Made by a program: the position numbers and the translations under genes. A stretch of DNA of 60,671 nt from Candidatus Falkowbacteria bacterium. Its GTDB lineage: Bacteria > Patescibacteriota > Patescibacteriia > XYB2-FULL-38-15. The DNA lies in NCBI GenBank assembly GCA_016214745.1, contig JACRNW010000009.1:1-60671 (forward strand), read 5' to 3'. The notes beneath the pieces were generated by a model that did no database searches, had not been told where the DNA came from, and saw only the letters and a program-made list of their open reading frames with translations. Below, piece after piece: positions 1 to 60,671 of the stretch. The first letter of the stretch is position 1. Each line of letters starts with the position of its first letter.

Positions 1-10
1 AAACAAATAA

Positions 11-123: not shown

Positions 124-141
124 TTTCTACCTTAAACCAGC

Positions 142-176
142 AAAAAAAAGACCGGGCTTTGTTTATTACCCAGTCT
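142..176 (-). terminator. intrinsic terminator after the 190..468 ORF
   Basis: The minus strand reads AAGACTGGG..CCCGGTCTTTTTTTT: a stem with one mismatch followed by a T-run. Confidence 0.55.
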
Positions 177-189
177 TGTCCTCCTTTTG

Positions 190-468
190 TCACTTCTTCG
201 CACACTTCTTGGCGCGTTTCTCCGTGAGAAACTGGCGCAAACCCCCGCAGGTCGCAACCTCCTTCGGAACGTCGTCGTGCCATCCGCAACAGTCGCAGAT
301 CACGGTCCAACCGGCGGCCACCGCGTAGGAATGGATCATGCCCGTGCAATCGCCCCACTCATGACGGCCGAGCACCCCGTCAGCCGGAAGCGGACTCTCT
401 TCGGCGAGATCCGACCCTTCCGGAAAGATGAGCGTCTCGCCCGTCTCGTTCAGTTTGATCGGCTTCAT
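190..468 (-). CDS. small Cys/His-containing protein (92 aa), paralog of 468..737, no recognised family
   Basis: It starts MKPIKLNETGET, preceded by AAGGAGA. Its ATG overlaps the upstream stop as TGATG. It is GC-rich and contains an ICDCCG motif. Confidence 0.65.
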   Translation of the reverse strand: MKPIKLNETGETLIFPEGSDLAEESPLPADGVLGRHEWGDCTGMIHSYAVAAGWTVICDCCGWHDDVPKEVATCGGLRQFLTEKRAKKCAKK

Positions 469-737
469 CAGCGTCTCCTTCTTCGCGAACTCTTGACGCT
501 CTTCACGTGAGCGCGCAGCCGGCCCATGGTGTTCACATTGGACGGAACGGCGATGAGCCGTCCGCAATCCGCGCAGTTCACCGAGAGCATCTCCTCCGAG
601 ATCCGGACGACGTGGACTGCTCCCCCACAGAGGCGGTGAATCCCGAAGAAGACATGGACGGACCACTCTTCGCAAAAGGCTTTGCCATCGGGCCGGCAGA
701 TCGTGTCTCCCTCTTCGTTCAAACGGATCGGTTTCAT
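468..737 (-). CDS. small Cys/His-containing protein (89 aa), paralog of 190..468
   Basis: An internal start gives MKPIRLNEEGDT, preceded by AAGGAGGAG. It contains an NCADCG motif and has a TGA stop at 468..470. Confidence 0.65.
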   Translation of the reverse strand: MKPIRLNEEGDTICRPDGKAFCEEWSVHVFFGIHRLCGGAVHVVRISEEMLSVNCADCGRLIAVPSNVNTMGRLRAHVKSVKSSRRRRR

Positions 738-760
738 CTTCTCCTCCTTTTCTGCCAAAA

Positions 761-789
761 ATTTAACACTTAAAAATTAAAATGTCAAG
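761..789 (-). promoter_or_regulatory. sigma70-like promoter, TTGACA-N17-TAAATT (minus strand)
   Basis: The hexamers read directly on the reverse complement. The same module occurs at 19531..19559. Confidence 0.5.
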
Positions 790-861
790 CCCATCCCGCT
801 CTTACGAAACGCTCTTTGATAAGGTATAATAAATAATAAAGATAAAAAATAATTTTAAAAT

Positions 862-3913: not shown

Positions 3914-5107
3914 TTATTGACCAACTTCTTCCGCAAGCAATTCTTTCCCCTTACCGGCCCATTCCTCTTCTCCATAATACTCCATTTCAAGAATGTAGTC
4001 GGCAATAACGCTTTCACGCTGATCTTTTTCGGAGAGCGACAATAAATATTTCGTGAGAAATTCGTACTGGACGGCTAATCTTTTTTCATCATCTTCTATT
4101 TGGAGCCAAAGATTATTTTCAAATGCCCATAAGACAAACTCTGAATCATTTTTCTTTTCATCAATTATTTCCAAAAGTTTTTCCTGCGCCGCCCCTTCCG
4201 TTACTCCCGAATAATCATCTTTTGAAAGAAGACCTTTGATGGGGTTAATCATTTTATCAAGATACTCGCCAAGATATTCTTCGGCGTACGAAATATCTTG
4301 CACGGTGTAGGCCGGCCGCATCACGAGACGAATTCGCTCCGGATGATCGGTAAAATCCATGGCGGAAAGCGCGTCAGTGAGCGCCTGCACTTCAGTAAAA
4401 GACAAATCTGTTTTAACTGTTTTATACAATATATATTGCAACGCCACGTCTGTTACTGAACTTTTCTTCGGTATAAACTTTATCATCATCTGTTTTATAA
4501 AAGTTGAATGGTTGTGCGCCCGCTGCGGTTCGCCGATAGCGTACCCTTGGCGCTGCCGGAGCCACTCTAACGTTTCCGCGGTCGGAAGATCTAAATTACG
4601 AAAAATTCCGAGCGCCTCGGAAAAACCTAAAACCACAAGATAATCCGCCTTTGCCCCAAGAATTTTTTCTATCTGCCCGATACCATATTCAAGTCCGCCG
4701 ATGGAGCACGCTTTTGATACGTAATAATCCGAAGACAAATATTTGCCTCCGGGCGGCAACGGAGAATAAGTGCCGCGCGGCACGGCCGTGATAGTTACTT
4801 CCTGTTTTTCCCGGTCAATCGTAATCAGCTGAATGGCGTCGCAATGTCCATCAACTTGGCCAACCCGCCGGTCAAGCCCGATTACAAGCACACGAGCGAT
4901 TTCATCTTTGCCAAAGGGATCGGCCGGCTCGCTTTTTTCCCTTTCATCGCGGCGTGAATCAAGAAACTGCTCAATTTCTTTATTTAAAAATTCTGTTTTT
5001 TCCCGTTCCGCCGACTGCGCCCGATACGAAGACAACCCGTACACTGCAAACCAAGTGCCGAGACCGATAATCAATATTGCTAAAATAATTAAAATTATTC
5101 TTTTCAT
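3914..5107 (-). CDS. LytR-CpsA-Psr (LCP) family envelope glycopolymer transferase-like protein
   Basis: It has an N-terminal TM anchor. The segment VLVIGLDRR..DGHCDAIQLITID..VTITAVPRGT fits the LCP domain pattern. Confidence 0.7.
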   Translation of the reverse strand: MKRIILIILAILIIGLGTWFAVYGLSSYRAQSAEREKTEFLNKEIEQFLDSRRDEREKSEPADPFGKDEIARVLVIGLDRRVGQVDGHCDAIQLITIDREKQEVTITAVPRGTYSPLPPGGKYLSSDYYVSKACSIGGLEYGIGQIEKILGAKADYLVVLGFSEALGIFRNLDLPTAETLEWLRQRQGYAIGEPQRAHNHSTFIKQMMIKFIPKKSSVTDVALQYILYKTVKTDLSFTEVQALTDALSAMDFTDHPERIRLVMRPAYTVQDISYAEEYLGEYLDKMINPIKGLLSKDDYSGVTEGAAQEKLLEIIDEKKNDSEFVLWAFENNLWLQIEDDEKRLAVQYEFLTKYLLSLSEKDQRESVIADYILEMEYYGEEEWAGKGKELLAEEVGQ

Positions 5108-5416: not shown

Positions 5417-8400
5417 ATGCCGCTTCTTAATCAAGAACAAAATAAAGCTCACAACTCACACGCGCTCAATTTGCGGCAGACAGAGCGGAAAAAGGCGCAG
5501 AAAGAGCAAAAACGACGTTTGGCTTGCAAAGACCTGCAATGTTATTTAGGCGTTCATTGCTCAAATGCCCACCCGATATTAAAAATATTTAAAAAATTTT
5601 GGCATTGTTTAAAGTGGGCGATAAAACTTCTCGTGCCTGATTTTTTGATTGGCCATCCGAATTTATGGGATAACCTCAAAACCCTCCGCAAACATCCGCA
5701 ATTCAAGCCCCTGCGCATGGCGCTCGTGGCTTGGCTGATTTTTTTCTTGACCACCGGCTCTTTGTGGGGAATTTTTATTTTTAGAACTTATGCTGCCGCC
5801 GGATCAGGAGCGTTCAAGAATTGTGAATCCCAGGGTGCTTGCACTGGCGGCGGCACGCCGAGCGCAAACGACCCGGATGGAAACACAACATTGAGCACTG
5901 AACGAGTATGGTTAAGAACCACCCACAATACCAACACCGTAGATCCTGGCTTCAGTTATTCAGGCGGGGGCGAAGGGTCGGGAAACAGTATTGAGGTGTG
6001 GCTTTCCACTTCTTTGGCTACAGGGCATGCCACGTGGGCACCAAACGTTACCGTAACCGTACAATATTCTACTGATAACGGCGGAAGTTGGAGTAATGTC
6101 ACTGGCTTTCCTCAAACAGTTACTCCCACTTGGGCCGACGCCCTTGCGCAAACCAGCAACAGAGTGCAAATAACCGCTACTCTTCCCACGAGCGGCGATA
6201 TTGATAAATATAGGTTTAAGGCGGAATCAACAGAAATGGGGAGCAGCGACCCCATCAGCGTAACCCAAGATCCAGCGCAGTCAAATTTAAAGTTTGCCGT
6301 TTCTCCCACGACTGACTCGTCAAATTATAATCCCACGGCAACAATAAATGGCGTAACTACTACGGTTACGGTTACCGGCACTCTTACTTATGACTGGGGC
6401 GCCACGCCGGCTGATTACGGAGGAACCGGCGAAACAGTAACAGCCACTGTTAAAGATCAAAACAACGCCACCCAGCAGTCCCCCACTGGAACCATCAACG
6501 CCGACGGCACATTTTCTATACCTTTCAACTTGCCCAACGCGGCCGAGTTTGGTCAATGGACAGTGCTTGTTGATTACAGTCACAACCAAGACGCAGTCAC
6601 ACAAGGCAACGACACCTTTCTCGTCAATCTCGCCTTTTCCGATGTAACCTATCAGGTTTTTCAAAACGATGTGTCTGGCGGCACAAAAGAATCCAACAAC
6701 ACTGGCACCGCCAATATGGGCGTGCCGATTTTCATTACTGCCACACCATTTAACAATCCCGACAATGACAGCTTAACCGGTGTACAAATCCACTGGAATG
6801 TGTCTTCCCCGCCGGCAAATCAAACTTTTGCCGCCTGCACGACCTCCTGTACCAAAGAAATTACCGTGCCCACCGGCGCCGGAAATGCCGGAGCCGCAGA
6901 AATTGAAATCACCGGCACTGAACAAAACGGCAGTAACCCGGCCGCGACAGTTTCATCATCAATTTCAGGCTTTTCCGACCGCGCCATCACTCTTTCTACG
7001 GCTTGGAAATACTCAACCGTAAATACATCAATTGATAACGGCATTACCACAGATCATGATGTTTATAATCTTGGTGAAACGGTTAATTCTAACTTTTATC
7101 TCTACAATGTTCGCGACCAATTAGTTAAAGGCGAGGCAGCCGGCTCTTTAACTTTGGAAATTATTAAAGCGTCCGGAGGAAATGACACGTCTGTGGCGGG
7201 CGAGACCGTTGATGCCAATGGCTATGTTGCATGGAGTTATCTAACTTCTTCAAGCCATCAATACGCAAATGATGCGGTTGGCAGTACAAAACAGTTAAAA
7301 ACCATCGACGCCGACGGAAATACCGTAACTAGCGGAAACGAATGGGCGCTTTCCTCACTTTTGACCGTTGATAACATCTGGCACTCTAAATTGACTTCCG
7401 ACCCGTCTGAAGCAACCCAGTTTTTTATTGGCGCGGACAATATGCAGGTGAAAACGCACGTGTTGAATGTTCGGAACGAAAATAAGTCAGGCGCCGATGT
7501 CGCCCATGAAGTGCGCGACCCGGACAACAACCTCAACACTTCCTGGACAAATGCTACGGGGGCGGACGGCTGGACCGCTTTTCAAAAAGTTGTGCCTGAA
7601 GCGCCGGCTGGCGCTTGGTCGCTTAAAGCCACTGCCTCTGACGCGAGCGGCAATTCCTCGGCAACCGCCACGGAAAGTATTTCTTATGTCAGCGCCTATA
7701 CCGCAAAATACGGCATTCGCACAGTTGGCTGGAATCAGGAATATCACAAGGGTGATACTGCGACCTTCACTATTCAACTCTTGGAAAAAGACTCAAATGA
7801 TGATTGGTCCGCGGTTAATCCTGATACCGGCACAACGCCGTACTATGAAATTCAGTATTGGACAGGAAGCGCGTGGTCTTCGGTAGTGGGTCGAACCAAT
7901 ATGGATGAAAAAATTGCAAGTTCAACATGGGAGAAAAGTTACGCTATTCCTAACAGCGACACAGTCATCGGCAGAAAATATTCCATCACCTTTAATGCCA
8001 AGCTAGGCGGCGCGCAAATCGCCCAACTAAAAGAATTTGCTGTTGTGCAGCTAAGAGCCGGCGATCCGATGACCGTTGCCGCCTCGCCAGTACGAGCAGC
8101 CCCAAATGATACAGTAAAAGTAACAATTCGCGAAGCAAACCTTGATGCTACCGTACTTACCGGCAACGCGGCGAACACTTTTATTTATATTTACGATTCC
8201 AATAACACCTTACAAGTGAACGGCGCAAATCCCACAGAATTAGCAAATGGCGCTTATTATTACGATTATACTTTAGGCGCCTCGCCGATGAGCGGTGTTT
8301 GGCAAGCAGTGGTAAAAGTTACCATTGGCGGCAGCGATTATGCCGCGGCAACCAATTTTCAGATTGATTATCAATTGGCGAAAGAAACAACTGCACAAGA

Positions 8401-13488: not shown

Positions 13489-13590
13489 CCCCCACACCTA
13501 AAAATGTACTTTGTATGGGTAGCCCGTGTGGGGAGTTAAATCTTTATAGCTAATCCGTTTTGTTCTGCATAAAAGGATTAGGTGTGGGGG
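13489..13590. repeat. CCCCCAC-clamped long hairpin (CCCCCACACCTAA ... TTAGGTGTGGGGG) in the ileS upstream region
   Basis: The 13-nt arms are perfectly complementary. An inner hairpin is CTAATCC..GGATTAG, and an alternative partner GTGTGGGG lies at 13526..13533. Confidence 0.7.
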
Positions 13591-29214: not shown

Positions 29215-29444
29215 ATATATTAGGTAATAAAGATGATGCCCTAAAATTTATCCGAGTAACTGTAAGCCGGATTCTGTGCCTTGCCCAACTTTTGATTGGG
29301 CAAGCGGTAGTCATCTATCTAGGATTTTGATTGCTCAAAACCTCAAGCGGCTGTTTTTGGCCTTGCACCGGATAGGTGTTTTCCCCAGCGCCCGTCACCG
29401 GGCTGTCCTGCGTGAGCTCTTACCTCACGATTTAACCCTTGCCT

Positions 29445-29520
29445 CCCCCACTTACCTTGGCATAAATCTCTCGCATTTTTATCTACCATCAAAACCAATT
29501 CATGCCAAAGTAAGTGGGGG
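29445..29520. repeat. CCCCCACTTAC-clamped hairpin at the P12 position of rnpB
   Basis: The arms are CCCCCACTTACCTTGGCAT...ATGCCAAAGTAAGTGGGGG. Confidence 0.8.
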
Positions 29521-29660
29521 ATCGGCGGTATGTTTCTGTTGCACTGTCCGTGGGCTTGGTCACTTGATGTTCGATTAAAGCTGCACCTTCCGCGTAAACG
29601 GAAGACACAACACACAAACAGAAATGCTTACTCCCCGTCGCTGTTAGCGACTATCTCTCT

Positions 29661-29714
29661 CCCCCACTTACTTTGACATAAATTATCGACGATTAATGTC
29701 AAGGTAAGTGGGGG
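29661..29714. repeat. CCCCCACTTAC-clamped hairpin inside rnpB
   Basis: The arms are CCCCCACTTACTTTGACAT...ATGTCAAGGTAAGTGGGGG. Confidence 0.8.
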
Positions 29715-29733
29715 ACGGTGTCCGGACTTTCCT

Positions 29734-30028
29734 CCCCCCACTTATTAAGCCTCATTCAAACTATGTCTCAATCTTTCCCTGATTCTGCGATAACCCTGTT
29801 TAAACATCTTTAATTTCCGCTCCCTGTCCCGTGCGTCTTTTGATGATTTATATGCTTCATAATAAACCAACTCAAATGGAGCACCGCTCTTCGTGGATTT
29901 AGATTGTTTCTTGTTATGTTCTTCTAGCCGCCTTCTCAAATCAGAAGTAAAACCAATATATAATTTTCCATTAATTTTACTTCTAAGAATGTAGCAATAA
30001 TGCATAACAAGGCTTAATAAGTGGGGGG
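29734..30028. repeat. CCCCCCACTTATTAAGCC-clamped hairpin at the P3 position of rnpB, enclosing the GIY-YIG ORF
   Basis: The 18-nt arms at 29734..29751 and 30011..30028 are perfectly complementary. Confidence 0.85.
29745..30005 (-). CDS. GIY-YIG nuclease superfamily protein (UPF0213/YhbQ-like, 86 aa)
   Basis: The protein reads MHYCYILRS..GKLYIGFTSDLRRRLEEHN...YYEAY.S..DARDRERKLK. It has the same orientation as rnpB, and its stop codon lies within the hairpin arm. Confidence 0.8.
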   Translation of the reverse strand: MHYCYILRSKINGKLYIGFTSDLRRRLEEHNKKQSKSTKSGAPFELVYYEAYKSSKDARDRERKLKMFKQGYRRIRERLRHSLNEA

Positions 30029-30074
30029 TAACTACCCATTACTCGGATAAATTTTAAGGTACCAAAATATCCTT

Positions 30075-32232: not shown

Positions 32233-33984
32233 TTATACCTCAATTATGACCGGGAGCACCATTGGCCGGCGTTCGGTTTTGGTAAAGAGGAATTGACCAA
32301 TATTGTCGCGGATTTTATTTTTGATGAAAACATTGTCCGCCGCCGATTTCGGATCGCGGTCGGAAATTAATTTTTTCACTTTAGCGCGAACTTGCTCAAT
32401 CAATTCTTTGCTCTCGCGCATATAAACAAAACCGCGGGAAATAATATCCGGACTGCCAATCAAATAACCTGTCTTCGTGTCAACCGTCACGATAATCACA
32501 ATCATGCCATCCTCGGCCATCATCTTTCGATCGCGAAGCACGACTTGGCTCACGTCACCCACGCCCAAACCATCAACCATTACATAATCCGATTGAACGC
32601 GTTGCGGCGTTAGTCGTCCCGCCGCGCCATACGGTTCTTTAGCCGCGGCCTGAAACTCTATTATCTGACCATTATCCGCGACAAAAATATTTTTGGGATC
32701 AAGGCCAATACTCTCCGCGATTTTGGCGTTCATCCGCAAATGCGAATGGCTGCCTTCAATCGGAATAAAATATTTTGGATTGACCAAACGAATCATCAAT
32801 TTAATGTCTTCTGCTTTAGCGTGACCGCCGGCGTGAATGTCCATCATTTTATAATGAACAACCTCGGCGCCTTTGCGATAGAGCGTATCTTTTAATCTTT
32901 GAATTGTTCGTTCATTACCCGGGACAACCGACGAAGAAAAGACAACCGTATCTTTCGGTTCAATTCTGATAAAACGATGCTCTTCATTTGCGATCCGCAT
33001 CAAAACCGCCCGCTCTTCGCCCTGGGCACCGGTGCAAACAATAATTATTTTTTCCTGAGGAAAATTATGGACGTCGGCAATATCAATCAGCGTCCCCTGT
33101 TTTACTTTAAGATAGCCGAGCACTTTTATAATTTCCACGTTGGTCTTCATGCTGAAACCGTCAACCGCGACTTTTTTCCCCATCTCTTCCGCGATACGAA
33201 TAATCTGTTCAACTCTTGAAAGAAGCGAAGAAAAAGTTCCAATAATAATTCTGCCCGGCGCTTTTTCAATCAAGGTTTTTAAATTTTTTCCGATTTCCTG
33301 TTCGGAAATTTGGTGACCTTCTTCCGGAGCATTCGTACTGTCAGACATTAATGCCAAAACTCCTTTTCGTCCGACTTCGGAAATTTTCGCGAAATCGGCC
33401 GGCCGTTCATCAACCGGAGTATAATCAAATTTCCAATCGCCGGTATGCATAATCGTGCCGACCGGAGTATGAACCACTACCGCGACGGAATCGGGAATAT
33501 TGTGATTCACGTGAATAAATTCCACTCCAAATTTTCCCAGAGCCAAAACGTCGTCGGTTTTTACCACGGCTAAATTTAATTTTGTGCTCTTGTAATCCTC
33601 TTGGCGTTTTTTAATAATGGCCAAAGTCAATTGCGTGCCATAAATCGTAGGGTTGCCAAGCCGCGGCACAAGATGCGGAATGGCGCCAATATGATCGTAA
33701 TGGCCGTGGGTAATAATCACGCCGCGAATATTTTTTTCTTTTCCTTTAAGATATGAAACATTTGGGATGATATAATCAATTCCCGGCATGTCTTCTTCCG
33801 GAAATTGCAAACCCATATCAATCAAAATGATATCGTTTTCATATTCCAAAAGAGTCATGTTCCGGCCGACCTCTTCAAGGCCGCCGAGCACGATCACTTT
33901 TAATCTCGGCGTGCCCACGCTTTTTTGATGATACCTCTGGCCGCCGTGTGTTTTTTGTTTTGTTGATTTTTTATAAAACATCAT
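32233..33984 (-). CDS. rnj: ribonuclease J
   Basis: It has the MBL motif ITHGHYDHIGAIPHL and beta-CASP-like architecture, and its 583-aa length fits. Confidence 0.9.
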   Translation of the reverse strand: MMFYKKSTKQKTHGGQRYHQKSVGTPRLKVIVLGGLEEVGRNMTLLEYENDIILIDMGLQFPEEDMPGIDYIIPNVSYLKGKEKNIRGVIITHGHYDHIGAIPHLVPRLGNPTIYGTQLTLAIIKKRQEDYKSTKLNLAVVKTDDVLALGKFGVEFIHVNHNIPDSVAVVVHTPVGTIMHTGDWKFDYTPVDERPADFAKISEVGRKGVLALMSDSTNAPEEGHQISEQEIGKNLKTLIEKAPGRIIIGTFSSLLSRVEQIIRIAEEMGKKVAVDGFSMKTNVEIIKVLGYLKVKQGTLIDIADVHNFPQEKIIIVCTGAQGEERAVLMRIANEEHRFIRIEPKDTVVFSSSVVPGNERTIQRLKDTLYRKGAEVVHYKMMDIHAGGHAKAEDIKLMIRLVNPKYFIPIEGSHSHLRMNAKIAESIGLDPKNIFVADNGQIIEFQAAAKEPYGAAGRLTPQRVQSDYVMVDGLGVGDVSQVVLRDRKMMAEDGMIVIIVTVDTKTGYLIGSPDIISRGFVYMRESKELIEQVRAKVKKLISDRDPKSAADNVFIKNKIRDNIGQFLFTKTERRPMVLPVIIEV

Positions 33985-34079
33985 AAATAAATAAAATTAA
34001 ACTATTATAAATTAAATGCCGGAGGGGAGAGTTGAACTCCCATGGCCTTGCGGCCACACGGCTCTGAACCGTGCGCCTG

Positions 34080-34187
34080 CCCCCACACCAATGCCGCGGG
34101 TGGGAGTTGAACCCACATGACCTTGCGGCCACACGGCTCTGAACCGTGCGTGTATACCATTTCACCACCGCGGCATTGGTGTGGGGG
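34080..34187. repeat. CCCCCACACCAAT ... ATTGGTGTGGGGG hairpin element carrying a complete tRNA
   Basis: The 13-nt arms stack continuously on the acceptor stem of the inner tRNA, giving a perfect 20-bp helix. Confidence 0.8.
34092..34174 (-). tRNA. tRNA-Leu(CAG), class II with a long variable arm
   Basis: The acceptor is GCCGCGG/CCGCGGC, the anticodon loop TTCAGAG, the variable arm TGGCCGCAAGGTCAT and the T-arm GTGGG-TTCAACT-CCCAC. No CCA is encoded. Confidence 0.9.
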
Positions 34188-34313
34188 TGAATATACCATT
34201 TCACCACCCCGGCATGAGGTTTGCGGTATGAGGAAAATCTGGTTTACGCCAACCGCGCGCTTGCGCAAAGACGTAAACCAATTTCAAAAAATAGAAGTTA
34301 AAATTTTTTTAAT

Positions 34314-36110
34314 CTACTTCCACTGCCTCTTGGTTTTTTTATACCAATCAGAAATTCCGGCGAAACGGTCGCTCGGAACATTGATGCGCAAGACGTCGAC
34401 TCCCCGGACATCGGTGCTCACAACATAAATGTAGCGGGGGCTATAGAGAAAAATAGCCGGGAGATTGTCAGCTAAAATATTTTGAAACTCAAGATATTTT
34501 TTTGCTCTCTCTTCCGCGTTATCGGTTTGCCTTGCCTCTTCAAGCAATTTATCCGCGTTACGGTTCGCATAAAGAGAAAGGTTCAAACCGGGATCTTCAA
34601 CTTGCGAAGAATGCCAAAACGGAAAAGGATCAGAATCAAAACCAACAATTGTCCCGAGCATCAACGCTTCATAAGTGCGTGAACGGATTATTTCTCTTTG
34701 AATTCTTGTGGCAGGAATCATCTGCAGTTCAACTTGAACGCCGATCACCTCCCAACTTGTCTTAACGATTTCTCCAGCTCTCGCGTATTCGGGTCGGTCA
34801 ACCGTTGTTAGAACTATTTTTAAAACTTTATCACCTTTTTTTCTCACAGTTTCGCCTTCGGCCAGTTTAAACCCGGCCTTTTCAAGCGTCTCGGCGGCTA
34901 AAGCTTGATCAAAAACATTTTTTTTGATTTCCGACGAATAACCGACATAACCGGGAAAAATCGGACCGTCAATCGCCTCGCCCTTGCCTCCCAGAGCTTC
35001 TTCTATAATTTTATTTTTCGGAATGCTTATAGCCAAGGCTTTACGCACCGCGTCATCTTTTAAAAATTCATTATTTTTCTGGTCAAAAAAAATGGCTGTA
35101 TATTGAGGCAAACTTAAAAAATATTTTGTAAGTTTTTTGCTTTGGAGAGTGCTTTCCATTTCCTCGGGCAGAAAACTCACGCCTTCAATATTCTTGTTTT
35201 GAAGCGCCGCGAGAGCAGATTCGTAATCCGGATAGAATTTAAAAATTAATTTTTCAAGATGTGGTTTTTGGCCGTAAAAATTCTCATTTCTAACCAAAGT
35301 ATAAATTTTAATGCTGCCGCTTTTATCTTTTGTCAAAGATTTAAATTCAAAAGGGCCGGAACCAACCGGTTTGATATTATACTCGGCCAAATTCGCGCTT
35401 TGCGCCGGAATGTTGTACCAAAGATGTTCGGGCAAAATGCCGAAAGTCAACATGCCCAAAAATGGCGCGTAAGCTTCATTCAAAGTAAACTTTATTGTTT
35501 TGTCATCAATTTTTTCTACTGCAACTCCGCGGAAACCGGAATAAAGCGGACTTTTAAAAAGCGGGTCTTTTATGAGCGATGCGGTGAAAGTAACATCTGA
35601 AGCGGTTAATTTCTCGTCGTCGTGCCATGATAAATTTTCTCGGAGAAAAATTGTATAAACTTTTTTATCTTCACTCACTTCAAATTTTTCCGCCAAATCG
35701 GGCACCAATTCAAGTTTTTCATTATATTTAAAAAGTCCGGAAAAAATAAGGTGAGACAAATCCATGTCCACATCATTTGTCTGCGCCAAAATCGGATTAA
35801 CGTATTGCGGCGCGCCAACCAAACCTTCAACGTATTCTCCTCCCGAAGCCGGCACTTGTTCCATTCTTGTCAAAAAAAATCTAGCCGCGAAGAAGACGGT
35901 GCTGGCTATTAAGACAAAAAAGAGCCCCGCAAGAACACATTTTTCGGAACGACACAAATATTTGGGAAGATATTTTAACTGCCCAAAAGTCGGCACTCTT
36001 GATTTTGACAAAGAGAGGACCAACTTTTTATCTAGTTCCGTTTGCCGTCCGATGGATAAGGGTTCAGTTTTTCTTTCCTTTTTAGAACGATCGAAAAAAA
36101 ATTTAATCAT
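34314..36110 (-). CDS. ABC transporter substrate-binding protein, family 5 (peptide/nickel type), membrane-anchored
   Basis: Its 598-aa length, N-terminal TM anchor and overall SBP_bac_5-like pattern fit. Confidence 0.7.
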   Translation of the reverse strand: MIKFFFDRSKKERKTEPLSIGRQTELDKKLVLSLSKSRVPTFGQLKYLPKYLCRSEKCVLAGLFFVLIASTVFFAARFFLTRMEQVPASGGEYVEGLVGAPQYVNPILAQTNDVDMDLSHLIFSGLFKYNEKLELVPDLAEKFEVSEDKKVYTIFLRENLSWHDDEKLTASDVTFTASLIKDPLFKSPLYSGFRGVAVEKIDDKTIKFTLNEAYAPFLGMLTFGILPEHLWYNIPAQSANLAEYNIKPVGSGPFEFKSLTKDKSGSIKIYTLVRNENFYGQKPHLEKLIFKFYPDYESALAALQNKNIEGVSFLPEEMESTLQSKKLTKYFLSLPQYTAIFFDQKNNEFLKDDAVRKALAISIPKNKIIEEALGGKGEAIDGPIFPGYVGYSSEIKKNVFDQALAAETLEKAGFKLAEGETVRKKGDKVLKIVLTTVDRPEYARAGEIVKTSWEVIGVQVELQMIPATRIQREIIRSRTYEALMLGTIVGFDSDPFPFWHSSQVEDPGLNLSLYANRNADKLLEEARQTDNAEERAKKYLEFQNILADNLPAIFLYSPRYIYVVSTDVRGVDVLRINVPSDRFAGISDWYKKTKRQWK

Positions 36111-51706: not shown

Positions 51707-51733
51707 AACCTACAATTTTTATCAATTACAAAA

Positions 51734-51807
51734 TGGGCGTGGATGGACTCGAACCATCGACCCCGGCTTTATAAGAGCCGTGCTCTAACCAGCTGAGCTA
51801 CACGCCC
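51734..51807 (-). tRNA. tRNA-Ile(UAU)
   Basis: The acceptor is GGGCGTG/CACGCCC, the anticodon loop CTTATAA and the T-loop TTCGAGT. No CCA is encoded. Confidence 0.85.
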
Positions 51808-52040
51808 ACAATTTGTTTTTTAAAGCATAACGGAAAAGGATGATTTTTTCAAGACCATAAAATTATCCACTTAATATTTTAATTTCGGAAAAATATAAAA
51901 TAAAAAAAATAAAAGTTATCCACATTTTGCTTGTTGACATCGAAAAAAAGGTTTATAATTAAATAATGATGATGTTATAAAATTTTATTTTAAAAAATTT
52001 TATTCTCATTTTATCTTTTGTAAAAAGGAGGTGAACCAAC

Positions 52041-54386: not shown

Positions 54387-54495
54387 AACCCGGCACTGTC
54401 CTACTTTCCCCAAAGAGTATCATCGGGGCTGAGGTGCTTAACTTCTGTGTTCGGGATGGGAACAGGTGTGGCCACCTCGCTAGTAGCACCGGGAT
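54387..54495 (-). rRNA. rrf: 5S rRNA
   Basis: The reverse complement contains CCCATCCCGAACACAGAAGTTAAGC and paired CCCGGTG/CGCCGGG-like termini. Confidence 0.9.
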
Positions 54496-54665
54496 TTCAA
54501 GCTAAAAATGCTTGAAATTTTTTGTATGTTTGTATGTTTGAACAATTCTTGTGGTTAGAATCGACCTATTAGTACGGCTCGGCTCAAATCCTTACGGACC
54601 TTACACCTGCCGCCTATCAACCTTGTGTTCTTCAAGGGGTCTAAACGAAATTTAATCTTGAAACC

Positions 54666-54700
<35 letters not shown>

Positions 54701-54822
54701 TGCCGAACGTAGCTACCCAGCTATGCCCTTGGTAGGACAACTGGTACACTAGAGGTTCGTCCTTCCCGGTCCTCTCGTACTAGGGAAGAGTTTTCTCAAA
54801 TTTCCGCGCCCACGACAGATAG

Positions 54823-54874
<52 letters not shown>

Positions 54875-54887
54875 TGGCGAACAGCCA

Positions 54888-54957
<70 letters not shown>

Positions 54958-55671
54958 ATGGACTCTTGGGGGAGATCAGCCTGTTATCCCCGGAGTAGCT
55001 TTTATCCGTTGAGCTTCGACCATCCTATATTGGATCGTCGGATCACTAAGTTATGCTTTCGCAACTCAGCGACTTGTAAGTCTTTGAGTAAAGCTGGCTT
55101 GTGCCTTTACGCGTCCAGCCCGGTTTCCATCCGGGCTAAGCCAACCTTTGTAAACGCCTCCGTTACTTTTTAGGAGGCAACCGCCCCAGTTAAACTACCC
55201 ACCAGACACTGTCTCCCAAACCGGATTACGGTCTCGGATTAGAATTAAAATTAAACAAGGGTGGTGTCTCATTGGCGCCTTGCGGCTCCCACCTACGCTG
55301 AACATGTTTAGTCTTAATCCAATATCAAGTTGTAGTAAAGCTTCACGGGGTCTTTTCGTCTAGCCGTGGGTAAAGGGCATCTTCACCCCTCTTGCAATTT
55401 CACCGAGTCCCTCGTTAAGACAGTTCTCAAGTTGTTATGCCATTCGTGCGGGTCGGAACTCACCCGACAAGGGATTTCGCTACCTTAGGACGATTATAGT
55501 TATCGCCGGCGTTCATCAGCGCTTAAGTTCAAGGCTGCCCCGTCTTGCGACGGATGACCTCTCCCCTTAACGTTCTGACACTGGCCAGGCATCAGCCCCT
55601 ATACGTTGCCTTACGGCTTTGCAGGGACCTGTGTTTTTGGTAAACAGTCACTTGAGATATTTTTATTGCAA

Positions 55672-55802
55672 CCCCCCACATAACTTTCGATGCAAGTATT
55701 AAGATACTTGCCAAATCTTTGAAAGATTTTTCCGCGATTTATTCCGGAAACACTATAAATTTCACACTTTCTCTTTTCTTTTCTCGAAAGTTATGTGGGG
55801 GG
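55672..55802. repeat. CCCCCCACATAACTTTCGA ... TCGAAAGTTATGTGGGGGG hairpin expansion in 23S (helix 63 region)
   Basis: The 19-nt arms are perfect. The element lies between GGGATAAGCCTTG and TTGCAATAAAAATATCTCAAGTGACTGTTTACC on the rRNA strand. Confidence 0.8.
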
Positions 55803-57000
55803 CAAGGCTTATCCCGAAGTTACGCCTAGTTTTTTTGCTTAGTTCCTAAACGAGGGTTCTCTCGTACACCTTAGGCTTCCCGCCTTGTCCACCTGTGTCG
55901 GTTTACGGTACGGTCTCCGTATCTTTAGCGCCCATAAGATTTTCTAGGCCCCTACTTTGCAAGAATCGGCTCCACCTTGCGGCTTCACCTGCGAACCGTC
56001 CACGATAAATCGGAACGGCCCAAGCGCATAACCAAATCGCTCTCTTACCACATAGAAGCGCACTTACGGACAAAAATACGGAGGTGCAGGAATATTAACC
56101 TGCTCTTCCATCGGCTACGCCTTTCGGCCTCGCCTTAGGATCGACTAACCCTGGGTCGATTTGCGTTGCCCAGGAAACCTTAGACTATCGGTGCTCTGAG
56201 TTTTCATCAGAGTTTTTGTTACTTATGCCAACATTCTCACTTCTCAAGCCTCCACCGCTCCTTACGGATACGACTTCGCTGACTTGAGAAAGCTCCCCTA
56301 CCGCTCTCCGATAAATCGGAGAACCCGTGCCTTCGGTACCGAATTTAGTCCCGATTATTTTCGACGCAGAAAAACTCGACTAGTGAGCTGTTACGCTTTC
56401 TTTAAAGGATGGCTGCTTCTAAGCCAACCTCCTAGTTGTTTGAGTCTTTCCACCACCTTTAACACTTAATTCGGATTTAGGGACCTTAAGCGACGATCTG
56501 GGCTGTTTCCCTTTTGACTAGTGAAGCTTAGCCCTCACAGTCTGACTCCCGGACTAAAAACATAGTATTCGGAGTTTGATTGGTGCAATCGACTTTCGCC
56601 GAATTGAACCATTCAGTGCTCTACCCCTATATTGTATATCCGAGGCTAGCCCTACAGCTATTTCGGGGAGAACCAGCTATTACCGAGTTCGATTGGAATT
56701 TCACCTCTAGCCACAACTCATCCCCATGTGTTGCACAGCATGTGGGTTCGGGCCTCCAGTCCGATTTCTCGGACCTTCACCCTGGTCATGGCTAGCTCAC
56801 CCGGTTTCGGGTCTCGTGTGCGCGACAAACGCCCTATTAAGGCTCGCTTTCACTTCGGCTTCCTCTCCATGGGAGATTAACCAAGCCACGCACAGCAAAC
56901 TCGTTGGCTCATTCTTCAATAGGAACGCTGCAACCCTTGCGGGCCGCAACTCCTTGTAAGCGTATGGTTTCAGGTACTTTTCATCGGCCTAACCGGCCTG

Positions 57001-57037
<37 letters not shown>

Positions 57038-57400
57038 ATCACTAAAAAATATTTAGTCTTGGCACATAGTCGTGCCGGATTCCCACGGGATTTCACGAGG
57101 CCCGTGGTACTTAAGTCAATCACAGCAAGATTACAGCTCCTTTTGAGTACAGGACTTTCACCTTCTCTGGTCCCTGTTTCCACAGGAGTTCTTCTAGGAA
57201 AGCTGTCCCGATTGCTCGGGCTTTTCCCTTGCCTGTCTTATTGGGAAGACAACGCGACTGACTCGCGTATCCTTGTTAGCAACGGCCCAAACCTTTAATT
57301 AGCAGCGGCCGAGAAGTCTTGCGACCCCCCGACCATCCGCTAAAACACTAACAAGGTTTTCGACTTTTCCCCGTTCGCTCGCCACTACTTGGGGAATGGG

Positions 57401-57496
57401 CTAGTTAATAAGTTTATAAGTTCATCAGCCAGTAAATAAATACCGACCAACTTAAGTTCCGCAAAACGGAACGAAACTTATAAACTTAAAAACTAG
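57401..57496. repeat. AT-rich hairpin expansion in 23S domain I
   Basis: The arms are CTAGTTAATAAGTTTATAAGTT...AACTTATAAACTTAAAAACTAG. It is inserted between GGAAAAGAAACAAAG and ATTCCCCAAGTAGTGGCGAGCGAAC on the rRNA strand. Confidence 0.75.
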
Positions 57497-58250
57497 TCTT
57501 TGTTTCTTTTCCTCCGGTTACTGAGATGTTTCACTTCACCGGGTTGCCTTCGCTACCCTATGAATTCAGATAGCGATGATCCGATCTTCAATCGGACCGG
57601 GTTACCCCATTCGGAAATCTCCGGATCAAAGGTTGCTTGCCACCTCCCCGAAGCTTATCGCAGGCTACTACGTCCTTCATCGTTTTTTAGTGTCTAGGCA
57701 TCCACCATACGCCCTTATATCTAACCACAAGAATTGTTAAAACATACATTTTACAATTCTCATTTTTATGTTGGCTCTCTTTACTTTGTTGTTGGGTATA
57801 TAAGATGCTCTTTTATTCAATTGTTAATGAACAATTTTTTTCTGTTTCTCGCCTCTCGTTTTATTTAGAAACCAGAGGCGGGAGCAAAAAATAATTTTTT
57901 GAAAAAGGACTAAAAAACCGCTCTTTTCGAGCGGCTTGGTACGACCAAAAAATGGGTTAACCGCTCGGGAACTTAAAAGTTAAAACTTGTTTTACCATAT
58001 TTTGCCCAATATCAGAGGAAAATCGTCAGATGTAGTTCTGGATAAAATGTGGACAACTTCCTCTGTTTTCTTAGTACATTAGTATTTTAATACCATCTAA
58101 AAAAGCTGTCAACCCCGTTAGAAATCTGTTTAATATTTTACAAAGTTATTTTAAAAAGTCAAGCCGGGATTAATATTCTCAATCTGCACAAAAAAATTTT
58201 ATTTAAAATTTTTTCTCAAAGATTTCTAACGGGGTCAAGAGGATTTAAAT

Positions 58251-58324
58251 AAATACTCCGTGTTATCTGCGCTCGCTCGAAAATGAAATTAAAATTTCAT
58301 TTCTCTCACTCGCTTGATAATAAA
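58251..58324. repeat. copy 3 of the 3-copy conserved element
   Basis: The sequence is AAATACTCCGTGTTATCTGCGCTCGCTCG, then AAAATGAAATT-AA-AATTTCATTT, then CTCTCACTCGCTTGATAATAAA. Confidence 0.85.
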
Positions 58325-58369
58325 AAAGAACCGGCAGGATCGTCGCTTTCTAAGCAACTTTCCTGCCGG
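58322..58369 (-). terminator. intrinsic terminator of 58390..59325
   Basis: The minus strand reads CCGGCAGGA...TCCTGCCGG followed by TTCTTTTTT. Confidence 0.55.
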
Positions 58370-58389
58370 CGTTCTCTACCTCCTTCGGG

Positions 58390-59325
58390 CTATCCCCCGG
58401 CGCCGCACACCCGTCCGACGATCTCGCAAGCCGCAGGCTGGGTGAGCGTCTCGCGTGCGCCGAACATCGTGCCCGGAGCGCCCACCGGAGCCATGGCGGC
58501 AAGCCGACCGCTCAGCCACTTACGGATTGCTTGCGCCTGATCGGATTTGATGAAGCGCTTCGTGGCATCGATGCGTCCGATCGCCTCCGCGATCACCGAA
58601 AGCGCGTCTTCCCTCTGCCGACATGCCGTCTTCCACTTGCCCTCAAGCTCCTCGGCCCGCTTCTTCGCCTCGTCGCGCTCGGCCATGAGTCGCTTGATGT
58701 CCACGAGCATCACACTAGCCCGCAAGATCCACTCGTACACACGGTCGTCAATGAAGTAATACTCGCAGAAGTCGAGGGCGGTTCCGATGTCAGGCGTAAT
58801 CGAGTGGTTCTCGGCGTCAACGAGCGTCACGTGCGGAGAAAGGGCGTTCCGCCAAGGGTCCGATGGAAGCCTGACTTTCCAACCCTGAGCTTGGCCCACC
58901 TCGTTGAAGCGATGACGGTACACACAGCCCCAGGAGTTGAACCAACCGCCGAGCGGAACCTTGATGACCGGACACTTCAGGAAAACGGCGTACTCGTCCT
59001 CTTTCTCGCCACGCCGCGTGAATGAGACTTGGATCTTCTGCTCTTCGTCGCGCCAGTACCAGGCGTTGTAGCCCTTGACGTTCCGCCACCAGTAGTCGCG
59101 GAGCCATCTGATCGGGTGTCGAACACCGATGATCTCAGCCAACATCAGGATGGTTACAAGACCCAGGATGATGCCCCCGCGCATTACCCACTTCTCTTTG
59201 TCCAGGTCATAATGGACAATGACCCAGAGCACCGTCGCGCTCAGCAGGAACAGCAAAGGGAAAACCAACAACTTCAGCCCGCCCTTGGGAATCGGCCGAT
59301 ACTTCTGGACTTCCTGCAGATCCAT
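58390..59325 (-). CDS. membrane protein (311 aa; two N-terminal TM segments, Trp-rich region, C-terminal coiled coil), unknown family
   Basis: The start MDLQEVQKYRP is preceded by AAGGAGA. The ORF is GC-rich, and the longest ORF extends to 59397. Confidence 0.65.
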   Translation of the reverse strand: MDLQEVQKYRPIPKGGLKLLVFPLLFLLSATVLWVIVHYDLDKEKWVMRGGIILGLVTILMLAEIIGVRHPIRWLRDYWWRNVKGYNAWYWRDEEQKIQVSFTRRGEKEDEYAVFLKCPVIKVPLGGWFNSWGCVYRHRFNEVGQAQGWKVRLPSDPWRNALSPHVTLVDAENHSITPDIGTALDFCEYYFIDDRVYEWILRASVMLVDIKRLMAERDEAKKRAEELEGKWKTACRQREDALSVIAEAIGRIDATKRFIKSDQAQAIRKWLSGRLAAMAPVGAPGTMFGARETLTQPAACEIVGRVCGAGG

Positions 59326-59390
59326 GACTCGTTCTCCTTTCCGATCCCGACACTCTGGTCGTGGATGGGTGGCGCGGCGGGACAACCTTT

Positions 59391-59414
59391 CCCCCACTTA
59401 CTAGTAAGTGGGGG
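59391..59414. repeat. perfect 24-nt palindrome CCCCCACTTAC-TA-GTAAGTGGGGG
   Basis: It is identical to the stem sequence of the rnpB hairpins. It lies in the leader of 58390..59325. Confidence 0.9.
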
Positions 59415-59524
59415 ACTATTTGTCCGGACCGCCAAAGAGATATGCCAGGCCCATCCTGGCCACGTTTTTAATTTTTAATTTTGATAAAAAAGTCAAGGCC
59501 AAAATCCCCTGGCGCTTCGCGCTG

Positions 59525-59583
59525 CCCCCTTTGCAAAAGGGGGAAAAATTCTCTCCCTTTTCTAAAGGGAGAGTTAGAGAGGG
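59525..59583. repeat. G/C-rich palindromic elements CCCCCTTTGC-AAAAGGGGG and CTCTCCCTTT-tct-AAAGGGAGAG + TTAGAGAGGG
   Basis: This is read directly. The architecture matches 25957..26077 and 51504..51534. Confidence 0.7.
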
Positions 59584-59629
59584 ATTTTTGTTTTTTGTAT
59601 ATTTGTAATTAATTTGTAATTTGTAGAAT

Positions 59630-59661
59630 AAAAAAAGTGGGCCACCCCGAAGGTTTCCCAC
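59630..59661 (-). terminator. intrinsic terminator of the three-gene unit
   Basis: The minus strand reads GTGGGAAACC-ttcg-GGGTGGCCCAC followed by TTTTTTT. Confidence 0.55.
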
Positions 59662-59711
59662 TATGTCCCTCCCTCCTCGCTTTTTGATTGGCTCTAAGGC
59701 CAAGAGACTTA

Positions 59712-59921
59712 TTATTGCCGGCAGATCCACTTGCTCCTGACCCAGGCCAAGAGAGCCACGACTGCGAGCGCCACCGTGACGGCGAGGCCAAGGGCAAAGG
59801 CGATCTGGTCCTCTGCCCCAAGGATGAACGCGAAGACAATCGCAGCCACTCCTCCAAGAAGCGCGATAGTCGCGTCCTTCCCGCCCGCCGATCGTTCCTT
59901 CCAAAACCGGATGAACCCCAT
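59712..59921 (-). CDS. two-TM miniprotein (69 aa)
   Basis: GGGAGGA lies upstream. The TM segments are IALLGGVAAIVFAFILGA and FALGLAVTVALAVVALLAWV. Confidence 0.6.
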   Translation of the reverse strand: MGFIRFWKERSAGGKDATIALLGGVAAIVFAFILGAEDQIAFALGLAVTVALAVVALLAWVRSKWICRQ

Positions 59922-59955
59922 CAGCTGTCCTCCCTAACCATCACCGCGGGTTGCG

Positions 59956-60135
59956 TTACTCTTCGTAGCGCTTCTTCGCGTCGCGCCAAGCGAACACGAT
60001 CGCCGCCGTGATGAAGACGAGAAAGAGAACGACGAGCGGAATGCCGCCCGACAGCTCGAGCTTGACGCGCGGCAGACCGGCGGCGATACAAATCGCCGCG
60101 AGGACGAGACAGATCACCGACAGAACTTTTTCCAT
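59956..60135 (-). CDS. two-TM miniprotein (59 aa)
   Basis: AAGGAGGGG lies upstream. Its ATG overlaps the upstream TAA as TAATG. Confidence 0.6.
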   Translation of the reverse strand: MEKVLSVICLVLAAICIAAGLPRVKLELSGGIPLVVLFLVFITAAIVFAWRDAKKRYEE

Positions 60136-60434
60136 TACCCGCCCCTCCTTGCCCTCACGGCTCCCCAGTTCTGATCGCGCCAGTTCTTGAGCGCTTCGCC
60201 ATGCTCCCAAAACCGGAACAGAGCGATCATCACATGGGCGACTTGAGAATTCGAAACTCGCAAGATCGGATCGTCGATTGTTTTCTCGACGATATCCTCC
60301 AGTCGCAATCCTTGGTTGAGCTTCGCTTCCATCCGGTCTGCCCATCGTTCCGCGTAGTTCAGGAGACGAAGCTCGTATCTCCCGGAATTTGCCGCGCGAA
60401 ACCTCTGCCAGAACACCCCATCTTTCACTTTCAT
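60135..60434 (-). CDS. soluble 99-aa protein, unknown family
   Basis: AGAGGAGG lies upstream of the ATG. It is the first gene after the promoter at 60466..60494. Confidence 0.6.
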   Translation of the reverse strand: MKVKDGVFWQRFRAANSGRYELRLLNYAERWADRMEAKLNQGLRLEDIVEKTIDDPILRVSNSQVAHVMIALFRFWEHGEALKNWRDQNWGAVRARRGG

Positions 60435-60465
60435 CTCTTACCTCCTCTTACTCCGGTAATCAAAA

Positions 60466-60494
60466 ATGTTAATACTATTTTTATTAAAAGTCAA
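60466..60494 (-). promoter_or_regulatory. sigma70-like promoter TTGACT-N17-TAACAT (minus strand)
   Basis: The hexamers read on the reverse complement. Confidence 0.45.
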
Positions 60495-60503
60495 GAGACA
60501 AAC

Positions 60504-60534
60504 AAAAAACAGAAATTTTTAGTTTCTGTTTTTT
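60504..60534. terminator. bidirectional terminator
   Basis: The sequence is AAAAAACAGAAA-tttttag-TTTCTGTTTTTT. Confidence 0.65.
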
Positions 60535-60570
60535 GGTGCAGAAATATTAACCTTTGCGCGAACCTTTTTC

Positions 60571-60629
60571 CAATCGCGGAGCGATTGACTTTCCGCCAGA
60601 GGCGGACAGGCACACGCGCCGAGCGCGTG
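60571..60629. repeat. array of three GC hairpins including TCCGCC-aga-GGCGGA
   Basis: The hairpins are CAATCGC-gga-GCGATTG, TCCGCC-aga-GGCGGA and CACGCGC-cga-GCGCGTG. Confidence 0.5.
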
Positions 60630-60671
60630 GTGGCTTGAAACCCAATCGTACGCGCGGAGTATCTGCCAACG

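Follow-up and report, generated by a model that had tools for sequence, protein, structure and literature searches.

The window analyzed here, a 60,671-nt stretch of a Candidatus Falkowbacteria contig (JACRNW010000009.1, assembly GCA_016214745.1), holds on its minus strand one tRNA-Leu(CAG) gene inside another: between positions 34213 and 34017, a 108-nt insert with an intact tRNA-Leu(CAG) gene separates 26 nt from 63 nt of a second one. We consider this insert to be probably a mobile cassette with CCC-rich termini, akin to the intervening sequences (IVS) of bacterial 23S rRNA and to miniature inverted-repeat transposable elements (MITEs), whose tRNA cargo makes the insertion self-rescuing. 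Very probably, it is the inner gene that works, and the outer one is a relic left by a derived insertion. With less assurance, we lean toward placing the cassette in a family of hairpins that is associated with GIY-YIG nuclease genes and is mobile.

Results

A tRNA gene on a perfect hairpin within a second tRNA gene

A sequence-only reading of the window had proposed the nested layout, and on rereading the sequence we recovered it with exactly the same coordinates, 108-nt insert, and 83-nt inner tRNA (Table 1). ARAGORN reported a single tRNA-Leu(CAG) in the region, at 34091 to 34175 (minus strand), and the Rfam tRNA model matched 34092 to 34174 (minus strand; 54.5 bits), the only family to pass the gathering threshold there. 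The insert begins and ends in short arms, here called the clamp, which extend the inner acceptor stem into the 20-bp helix that had been predicted: a 20-nt inverted repeat of 100% complementarity (34080 to 34099 with 34168 to 34187), in which the last T of the 5′ arm pairs with the discriminator A of the inner tRNA. The window has 6 perfect inverted repeats that reach 16 bp or more within 450 nt, versus 0.05 in 40 dinucleotide shuffles, and the longest in any shuffle reached 16 bp versus 20 bp at the tRNA site. The complete 197 nt folded into a cloverleaf with an extra, tRNA-tipped arm (−111.5 kcal/mol; z = −6.2). A promoter and terminator scan of 33900 to 34400 gave nothing above background.

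The inner and outer genes align as direct repeats of 61 nt (89% identity) and 24 nt (96%). Direct comparison agreed with the earlier claim that the D loop (AAATGGTATA) and the anticodon arm (CACGG TTCAGAG CCGTG) are identical in the two copies. Their acceptor stems differ (inner, GCCGCGG/CCGCGGC; outer, GCCGGGG/CTCCGGC, with a G6.U67 pair), as do their T stems (inner, GTGGG/CCCAC; outer, GGGAG/CTCCC). These paired changes, along with the recurrence of the same junctions in two related loci (L069 and L054, below), bear out the view that the two are distinct paralogs and not an assembly stutter. CCA is encoded neither by the inner gene nor by any other tRNA gene of the window; we considered its absence as a sign of decay in the outer copy and rejected it, since the clean gene of locus L118 has the same CCA-less 3′ flank.

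An uninterrupted ortholog and decay of the outer copy

We scanned GTDB species genomes with the anticodon-arm sequence and obtained 47 loci, mostly from Patescibacteria, many of which had tRNA-Leu(CAG) between an SBP_bac_5 gene and an RNase J gene, as in the window. Locus L016 is syntenic (SBP_bac_5, tRNA-Leu, RNase J) and alignable across both flanks, and its tRNA gene is uninterrupted (GCCGGAG...GGTATA-CAC-GCACGG...CTCCGGCA), with its last 59 nt 100% identical to the outer 3′ part of the window. Because this syntenic locus carries the outer gene without the insert, the outer gene is the former resident, and the hairpin with its inner tRNA the derived insertion.

The same comparison refined the break site. 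The sequence-only reading had placed it at the junction of the D and anticodon stems, away from the canonical 37/38 intron position; it is indeed noncanonical, and L016 moves it to the boundary at which the D loop ends and the 3′ strand of the D stem begins (TATA-CAC in L016 versus TATA-TTCA, the 108 nt, and CAGGC in the window). The TTCA that ends the outer 5′ part (34188 to 34191) has no counterpart in the L016 alignment, and the insert supplies a substitute CAC.

A metagenome pattern scan with the clamp/inner tRNA junction gave 54 matches, about 45 of them chance matches in protein-coding genes. The junctions TATATTCA-CCCC[C/T]ACACCAAT ... CA[G/A]GCGCAC recurred in 2 independent JGI metagenome contigs, L069 and L054. 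That the nest is an assembly artifact, a chimera of collapsed tandem or allelic tRNA-Leu genes, is scarcely credible. The window is a metagenome-type contig with repeats short enough to mislead an assembler, and L018, a more distant locus, has a suspicious 85-nt tandem repeat at its contig end; however, the same junctions occur in these independent assemblies, each with private differences, nests of the same kind are found in numerous NCBI, JGI, ENA, and Logan assemblies, and compensatory substitutions separate inner from outer.

In both L069 and L054, the inner tRNA is intact and the outer copy is wrecked. In L069, which has the same insert, the outer D loop carries an additional CCCGCCCGC...GCGGGCGGG hairpin and the outer anticodon arm a perfect palindrome (CCTGCCTGCCGGCAGGCAGG); the anticodon loop now reads UAGAGAG. 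L054 has a palindrome at the same site, has lost the outer variable arm, T arm, and acceptor, and has a degenerate clamp. With the outer copy damaged or truncated while the inner gene stays intact, and uninterrupted in L016, the suggestion of a dead outer copy whose place the inner one has taken is supported, and the window shows the relic in its least decayed state. Identity in the SBP C terminus was 73 to 81% within the clade, and the empty L016 was nearest to the filled L069; the filled or empty state is polymorphic inside one clade. In a separate observation, very short GC-rich palindromes of a second family, CCTGCC N4 GGCAGG (e.g., CCTGCCTGCCGGCAGGCAGG), are inserted in tRNA relics and nearby spacers of several genomes (Table 1).

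Arms homologous to the 5′ clamp arm are present in L037, L049, L054, L069, and L096. Across 6 clamp-flanked homologues, each of the four helices of the inner tRNA keeps 100% pairing, and three of them (the anticodon, variable, and T stems) show changes on both sides; to judge from these alignments, the inner gene is under selection. The clamp itself shows one A-U to U-A swap and one coordinated indel across the 6.

Tests for splicing or a split tRNA

ARAGORN was applied to the whole region and to 77 artificial deletions, for which it proved too lenient to fix a unique splice; owing to this leniency, most deletion boundaries yielded a tRNA. Exact deletion of the 108 nt did not: it left 4 surplus nucleotides, matching the earlier estimate of about 4, and no ARAGORN tRNA. 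When CAGG was removed too, the junction became the canonical ...UCAC G CACGG, as in L016. A bulge-helix-bulge motif at the exon-intron boundaries, with two 3-nt bulges 4 bp apart, sought by hand in both possible registers, was not found; the 20-bp helix is perfectly paired, and its flanks, TTCA and CAGG, are unable to form an outer helix or bulges. Rfam returned no ribozyme or intron family at the tRNA locus.

We therefore rejected a bulge-helix-bulge-dependent tRNA intron or split tRNA, for which the motif is absent and the interrupted gene is not conserved in relatives. Group I introns of bacterial tRNA-Leu genes have a P1-to-P9 ribozyme core of roughly 200 nt or more and lie in the anticodon loop. 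The insert consists of an 83-nt tRNA and a 25-nt clamp, sits at the edge of the D loop, and matches no Rfam intron, so this candidate was also set aside, as was an integrase island at a tRNA gene, given an insert of only 108 nt with inverted termini and no open reading frame (ORF). By eye, the window would suit a derivation of the 5′ clamp (..CACCA..) from the 3′ end of an upstream tRNA; L037, L046, and L096 do not, and the idea was dropped.

A broader possibility is that the outer tRNA still functions, either through an unconventional intron that is excised and ligated or as a split tRNA held by the 12-bp clamp; in the split version, RNase P and RNase Z would free the inner tRNA, and the outer halves would stay joined, like the split tRNAs of Nanoarchaeum. 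All outer stems pair in the window, the clamp unites both halves within the folded cloverleaf, and the swap and indel noted above show that clamp pairing is partly kept across lineages. Nevertheless, we regard a functional outer tRNA as very improbable. Besides the missing motif, the unpairable flanks, the lack of a ribozyme match, and the failed exact excision, L069 and L054 have lost the outer anticodon loop or 3′ half while the locus persists, the outer copies of L037, L046, L107, and L108 are broken too, and a single clean gene suffices in relatives. The proposal that the outer copy needs noncanonical processing thus found no support.

Nesting recurs at the tRNA-Leu locus of relatives

The sequence-only reading was confined to one locus; nesting at the tRNA-Leu locus is in fact recurrent and recursive across Patescibacteria. 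Further loci were retrieved via RNase J homologues, and the identities given are to the RNase J of the window. A GCCGCGG-type gene is nested in a GCCGGRG relic in the window, L069, and L054, and L016 (90%) has a clean GCCGGAG-type gene. In L107 (95%) and L108 (93%), the GCCGCGG-type gene is itself the relic: it is broken after CACG by a TCCCGCC...GGCGGGA cassette that encloses an intact GCCCAGG-type tRNA-Leu(CAG), and its T loop carries another hairpin. L110 (92%) has a GCTGGGA-type tRNA, clamped by CCCCGCAC, in the anticodon loop of a relic, with further 3′ relics downstream and a leftover TTGGTGTGGGG arm. L109, L118, and L119/L120 (91 to 93%) each have one clean GCCCAGG-type gene. Four tRNA-Leu(CAG) sequence types thus occupy one syntenic locus among genomes with at least 90% identity in the neighboring RNase J. 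The locus is either clean or nested up to three levels deep, with insertions at several tRNA sites, and the inner gene is always oriented like its relic. ARAGORN, with its intron option on the related nested loci, found exactly one intact tRNA-Leu(CAG) in every such locus, the inner one in each nest.

Nests also occur in the more distant lineages L037, L049, L009, L018, L046, and L096. L037 and L049 carry a CCCCTCACCAAT clamp, L018 and L046 have three-level nests, L009 combines a nest with a hairpin in the relic anticodon loop, and L008 has only stacked 5′ units. About 20 other tRNAs in the retrieved loci were without clamp flanks, a sample too small to inform either way. At its contig end (positions 1 to 200), L018 repeats an 85-nt unit, a tRNA 3′ part with the clamp arm TAGGCATAGGCGCTGGCAGGCGGG, three times, which may be a real array of 3′ relics or an assembly loop. 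L107 and L108, the two closest relatives, have a CutA1-family gene (4612 to 4938 and 4651 to 4977, respectively) that separates RNase J from the tRNA-Leu locus; the window lacks this gene.

A family of CCC-rich hairpins in structured-RNA genes

CCCCCAC occurs 17 times in the window versus 4.6 expected, almost always in inverted pairs, and makes seven CCCCCAC...GTGGGGG hairpins within 60.7 kb (Table 1). The clamp has a setting that the sequence-only reading had not described: it belongs to a hairpin family spread over the structured-RNA genes of this genome and tied to a GIY-YIG gene. Perfect inverted repeats extend for 20 bp at the tRNA site, 19 bp in helix P3 of RNase P RNA, and 18 to 19 bp in 23S rRNA. 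The RNase P and 23S helix names are our reading of alignments against Escherichia coli, not tool output, and the 23S site is one that we take to be the helix-63 region. The arms of the intergenic hairpin at 13489 to 13590 are the nearest match to the tRNA clamp; this hairpin has a 76-nt interior and lies about 35 nt upstream of an ORF starting at 13627.

TABLE 1 Nested tRNA locus, CCC-rich hairpins of the window, and short palindromes of related loci
Feature	Position	Strand	Length and details
Outer tRNA-Leu(CAG), 5′ part	34188..34213	-	26 nt: acceptor GCCGGGG, UG, D stem GUG, D loop AAAUGGUAUA, then UUCA
Clamp 5′ arm (terminal inverted repeat)	34175..34187	-	13 nt, CCCCCACACCAAT (RNA CCCCCACACCAAU)
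Inner tRNA-Leu(CAG), intact, presumed working	34092..34174	-	83 nt; ARAGORN and Rfam
Clamp 3′ arm	34080..34091	-	12 nt, TTGGTGTGGGGG (RNA UUGGUGUGGGGG)
Outer tRNA-Leu(CAG), 3′ part	34017..34079	-	63 nt: CAGGC, G26, anticodon, variable, and T arms, CTCCGGC, discriminator A
Hairpin, tRNA site	34080-34187	-	108 nt
Hairpin, RNase P RNA helix P3	29735..30027	-	293 nt, CCCCCACTTATTAAGCCT...AGGCTTAATAAGTGGGGG, holds GIY-YIG ORF
GIY-YIG ORF in P3 hairpin	29745-30005	-	86 aa; Pfam PF01541, E = 3.6e-18
Hairpin, RNase P RNA between P5 and P7 (P5.1-like)	29661..29714	-	54 nt
Hairpin, RNase P RNA helix P12	29445..29520	-	76 nt
Hairpin, 23S rRNA after CUUCGGGAUAAGCCUUGC	55673..55801	-	129 nt, 18-19-bp perfect stem
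Minimal member, perfect palindrome CCCCCACTTACTAGTAAGTGGGGG	59391..59414		24 nt; flanks pair GGACAA/TTGTCC
Intergenic member	13489..13590		102 nt, arms CCCCCACACCTAA / TTAGGTGTGGGGG
CCTGCC N4 GGCAGG palindromes	L069 1081-1104; L054 2749-2770; L037 (oriented segment) 363-382; L018 (oriented segment) 408-428

At all three RNase P positions, L109 and L110 (RNase J, 92 to 93%) retain short native hairpins, namely, a short P3, a 15-nt hairpin at the P5-P7 site, and AUCCCGCC...GGCGGGAU at P12. On this comparison, the CCCCCAC hairpins of the RNase P RNA are recent, lineage-specific replacements of hairpin tips. Since native hairpins are replaced and strands are not interrupted, the RNase P and 23S hairpins are probably kept, or trimmed in the manner of IVS, and not spliced.

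The RNase P RNA gene of the window spans 29247 to 30050 (minus strand), with its true 5′ end near 30050 and not at 29726, as given by Rfam. The P1 and P2 strands (UAUCCGAGUAA and GGUAGUUA) lie at about 30050 to 30028, upstream of the 293-nt GIY-YIG hairpin, so the gene is about 800 nt long; it contains three family hairpins and a further expansion of about 75 nt. An Rfam search of the RNase P region and of the region around the palindrome near position 59.4 kb at an E-value threshold gave only spurious miRNA-type hairpin matches. The minimal palindrome tops a longer paired region (59330 to 59480; GGACAA/TTGTCC and CGTGGATGGG/CCCATCCTGGCCACG) just upstream of a minus-strand ORF starting near 59326; this region resembles a structured leader or small RNA and matched no Rfam family. 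Two other perfect inverted repeats, one of 16 bp (ACCCCGTTAGAAATCT; 58112 to 58235) just upstream of the 23S gene and one of 14 bp within it (57409 to 57488), may be diverged family members or processing stems. The 23S rRNA gene (54388 to 57728) is about 3180 nt long versus the 2925-nt model and is followed by 5S rRNA; the upstream stretch of roughly 2.9 kb (57729 to 60671) gave no 16S rRNA match, so the rRNA genes may be unlinked. ARAGORN also found a tRNA-Ile at 51733 to 51808 (minus strand) with the anticodon TAT (UAU), which is uncommon in bacteria.

GIY-YIG genes are bracketed by the same termini

The ORF in the P3 hairpin is the only GIY-YIG ORF of the window. Its 86-aa product has 103 homologues besides itself, mostly of 70 to 100 aa and, where an organism is named, mostly from Patescibacteria. 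In all 8 distinct contexts that we examined (the window, L102/L103, L104, L105, L111, L114, L117, and L119/L120), an ORF of 80 to 90 aa is tightly bracketed by inverted repeats of 17 to 27 bp that begin with CCCCCCAC, CCCCTCAC, CCCGCC, CCCCGCC, or CCCAGCAC. Five of the 8 lie inside 23S rRNA or in P3 of RNase P RNA, always in the orientation of the RNA gene; L102 and L117 are examples within 23S rRNA. The same terminus variants border tRNA cassettes, which in the window lack an ORF of their own, and GIY-YIG ORFs. At P3 of RNase P RNA, the element is filled in the window, L104, and L119/L120 and empty in L109 and L110; a nuclease ORF within an insertion in a conserved gene, with both filled and empty alleles, is the pattern of a homing element.

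Two observations stand beside these. A single 23S gene (L102, positions 1 to 3104) contains, besides two LAGLIDADG ORFs, a GIY-YIG ORF that is bracketed by a hairpin and shares 69% identity with that of the window. In L042, at about 6760 to 7003, the stop codon of an ORF that looks GIY-YIG-like by eye (...LYAGKTDDLTRRYKEH...) abuts the 5′ end of an uninterrupted tRNA-Leu(CAG).

These termini also bear on a rival account without a mobile element, in which template switching or fold-back duplication copied the tRNA locally and quasipalindrome correction, a known route to perfect inverted repeats, perfected the clamp. Inner and outer genes share a lineage-specific variable arm and T loop, and their D and anticodon arms are identical, as a local copy would predict. 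However, the clamp and the GCCGCGG acceptor are homologous in the distant L037, L049, and L096, where the outer genes are different; the same termini bracket GIY-YIG genes and the hairpins of other RNA genes; close relatives hold different cassettes, tRNA types, and sites; and filled and empty alleles coexist in one clade, where the empty L016 is closest to a filled locus. We consider a purely local rearrangement unlikely.

Discussion

A proposed route to self-rescuing insertion

The cassette entered the resident tRNA-Leu(CAG) gene at the edge of its D loop, with both genes oriented alike. Several steps can be proposed by which it would be processed and spread, although we put them forward only tentatively. 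Transcription would start at the resident promoter upstream of the relic, making the relic halves a leader and a trailer. The 20-bp helix would act as a processing stem like those of rRNA, probably cut by RNase III, after which RNase P, a 3′ nuclease, and the CCA-adding enzyme would free the inner tRNA; the relic halves would be discarded and not rejoined. As the tRNA gene is essential and presumably single copy, an insertion into it would survive only by bringing its own copy. RNase P RNA and 23S rRNA may keep or trim a replacement hairpin, and a tRNA gene cannot tolerate insertion in that way, so only cassettes with a working copy would survive there. Since the rescue copy holds the same target, it would be open to renewed invasion, giving Russian-doll nests. 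Spread could occur through the GIY-YIG nuclease acting in trans, through homologous recombination via the conserved tRNA flanks after DNA uptake, or through both; crossovers between cassette tRNA and resident would also explain the 5′-only (L008) and 3′-only (L018) arrays.

Several points weigh against a mobile, self-rescuing cassette. The variable arm (TGGCCGCAAGG[T/C]CAT) and the unusual T loop TTCAACT are common to the inner tRNA and the local outer gene; the inner tRNA therefore seems to be partly homogenized with the resident or locally derived and not simply imported. The flanks show no consistent pattern of a regular target-site duplication; TTCA does stand at the left end of the insert in both the window and L110. 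The clamp is not strictly conserved, with 5 unpaired cells in 6 sequences and a degenerate form in L054. In the window, every stem of the outer copy is intact, and the sole sign of decay is the A6-to-G change that gives G6.U67. Which RNAs exist at the locus is deduced from its sequence, and the single-copy status of tRNA-Leu(CAG) is presumed. The link between tRNA cassettes and GIY-YIG genes is one of association, through shared termini of 7 to 8 nt, architecture, and co-occurrence, and the 86-aa protein comprises a catalytic domain with no evident DNA-binding domain.

Comparison with known insertions

The finding is best filed as an IVS- or MITE-like palindromic insertion with a new feature, a tRNA cargo nested in the gene that it replaces. 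The IVS of 23S rRNA are excised by RNase III without ligation, and some carry an ORF. Like those of Salmonella, Leptospira, and Coxiella, the insertions described here sit at hairpin tips of structural-RNA genes, have long terminal inverted repeats that form a stem, are present or absent at the same site among close relatives, and exist in an ORF-bearing form. In contrast to IVS, the host here is a tRNA, which is intolerant of fragmentation, and RNase III cleavage is putative; the cargo duplicates the host gene in full, and insertion is recursive; and the ORF encodes a GIY-YIG nuclease and not a protein of the S23p/IVP family.

A close precedent lies in the same organisms. In the rRNA genes of the candidate phyla radiation (CPR), the main text of Tsurumaki et al. 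(2024; PMC11270868) places all GIY-YIG genes in insertions that are neither group I nor group II introns and suggests that RNase III-type IVS exist in CPR. Those insertions resemble ours in organism, protein family, and intron class, and ours differ in having a tRNA-cargo form without an ORF. A term search of the main text of PMC11270868, in which RNase P was not a search term, showed that tRNA genes, inverted repeats, and palindromes are not mentioned. Our literature searches for nested tRNA genes in CPR/Patescibacteria gave nothing relevant.

Among bacterial repeats, the Rickettsia palindromic elements and the Neisseria Correia elements, the latter cut by RNase III, are palindromic and MITE-like and sit inside genes or transcripts. 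The present hairpins are similarly short, with inverted termini, form RNA hairpins, and are tolerated at particular positions; like MITEs, they occur in multiple copies that share terminal inverted repeats in one genome. They differ in that we saw neither a DDE-type transposase nor a regular target-site duplication, in carrying a functional tRNA gene as cargo, and in targeting the hairpin loops of RNA genes. The sole ORF associated with the hairpins encodes a GIY-YIG nuclease, and GIY-YIG nucleases are not a known prokaryotic transposase family.

The nest also recalls the disrupted tRNA genes of archaea, in which the break is likewise noncanonical and a GC-rich helix joins the halves. However, the present case is bacterial and lacks a bulge-helix-bulge, the interrupted gene decays, and the "intron" is a working tRNA. 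As with integrative elements that target tRNA genes, the insertion is harmless because the element brings replacement sequence. Those elements span kilobases, encode an integrase, and duplicate only the 3′ part of the gene as attL/attR direct repeats, whereas this insert is 108 nt long, has inverted termini, and provides the whole gene.

Implications

Annotation is affected: tRNA finders pick up the inner gene of such a nest alone, and the relic halves could be mistaken for split or intron-containing tRNAs; models of RNase P RNA and rRNA miscall boundaries at the related insertions, as with the RNase P RNA 5′ end that Rfam missed here. The non-intron GIY-YIG insertions of CPR rRNA gain a defined architecture, CCC-rich inverted termini at hairpin tips, and this architecture extends to RNase P RNA and tRNA genes. 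For the biology of these bacteria, an essential and presumably single-copy tRNA gene can be overwritten in place repeatedly. It is possible, if short of probable, that the hairpin-ended cassettes are selfish elements of a kind not recognized before, a break-and-rescue drive, mobilized by the small GIY-YIG nucleases with the same termini, that makes the host dependent on the tRNA copy it brings, serially replaces tRNA-Leu(CAG) across Patescibacteria, and remodels the hairpins of RNase P RNA and rRNA. If the mobilization model is true, the cassettes would constitute a natural bacterial break-and-rescue gene drive and a candidate for a new mechanism of transposition or homing aimed at hairpin-forming DNA.

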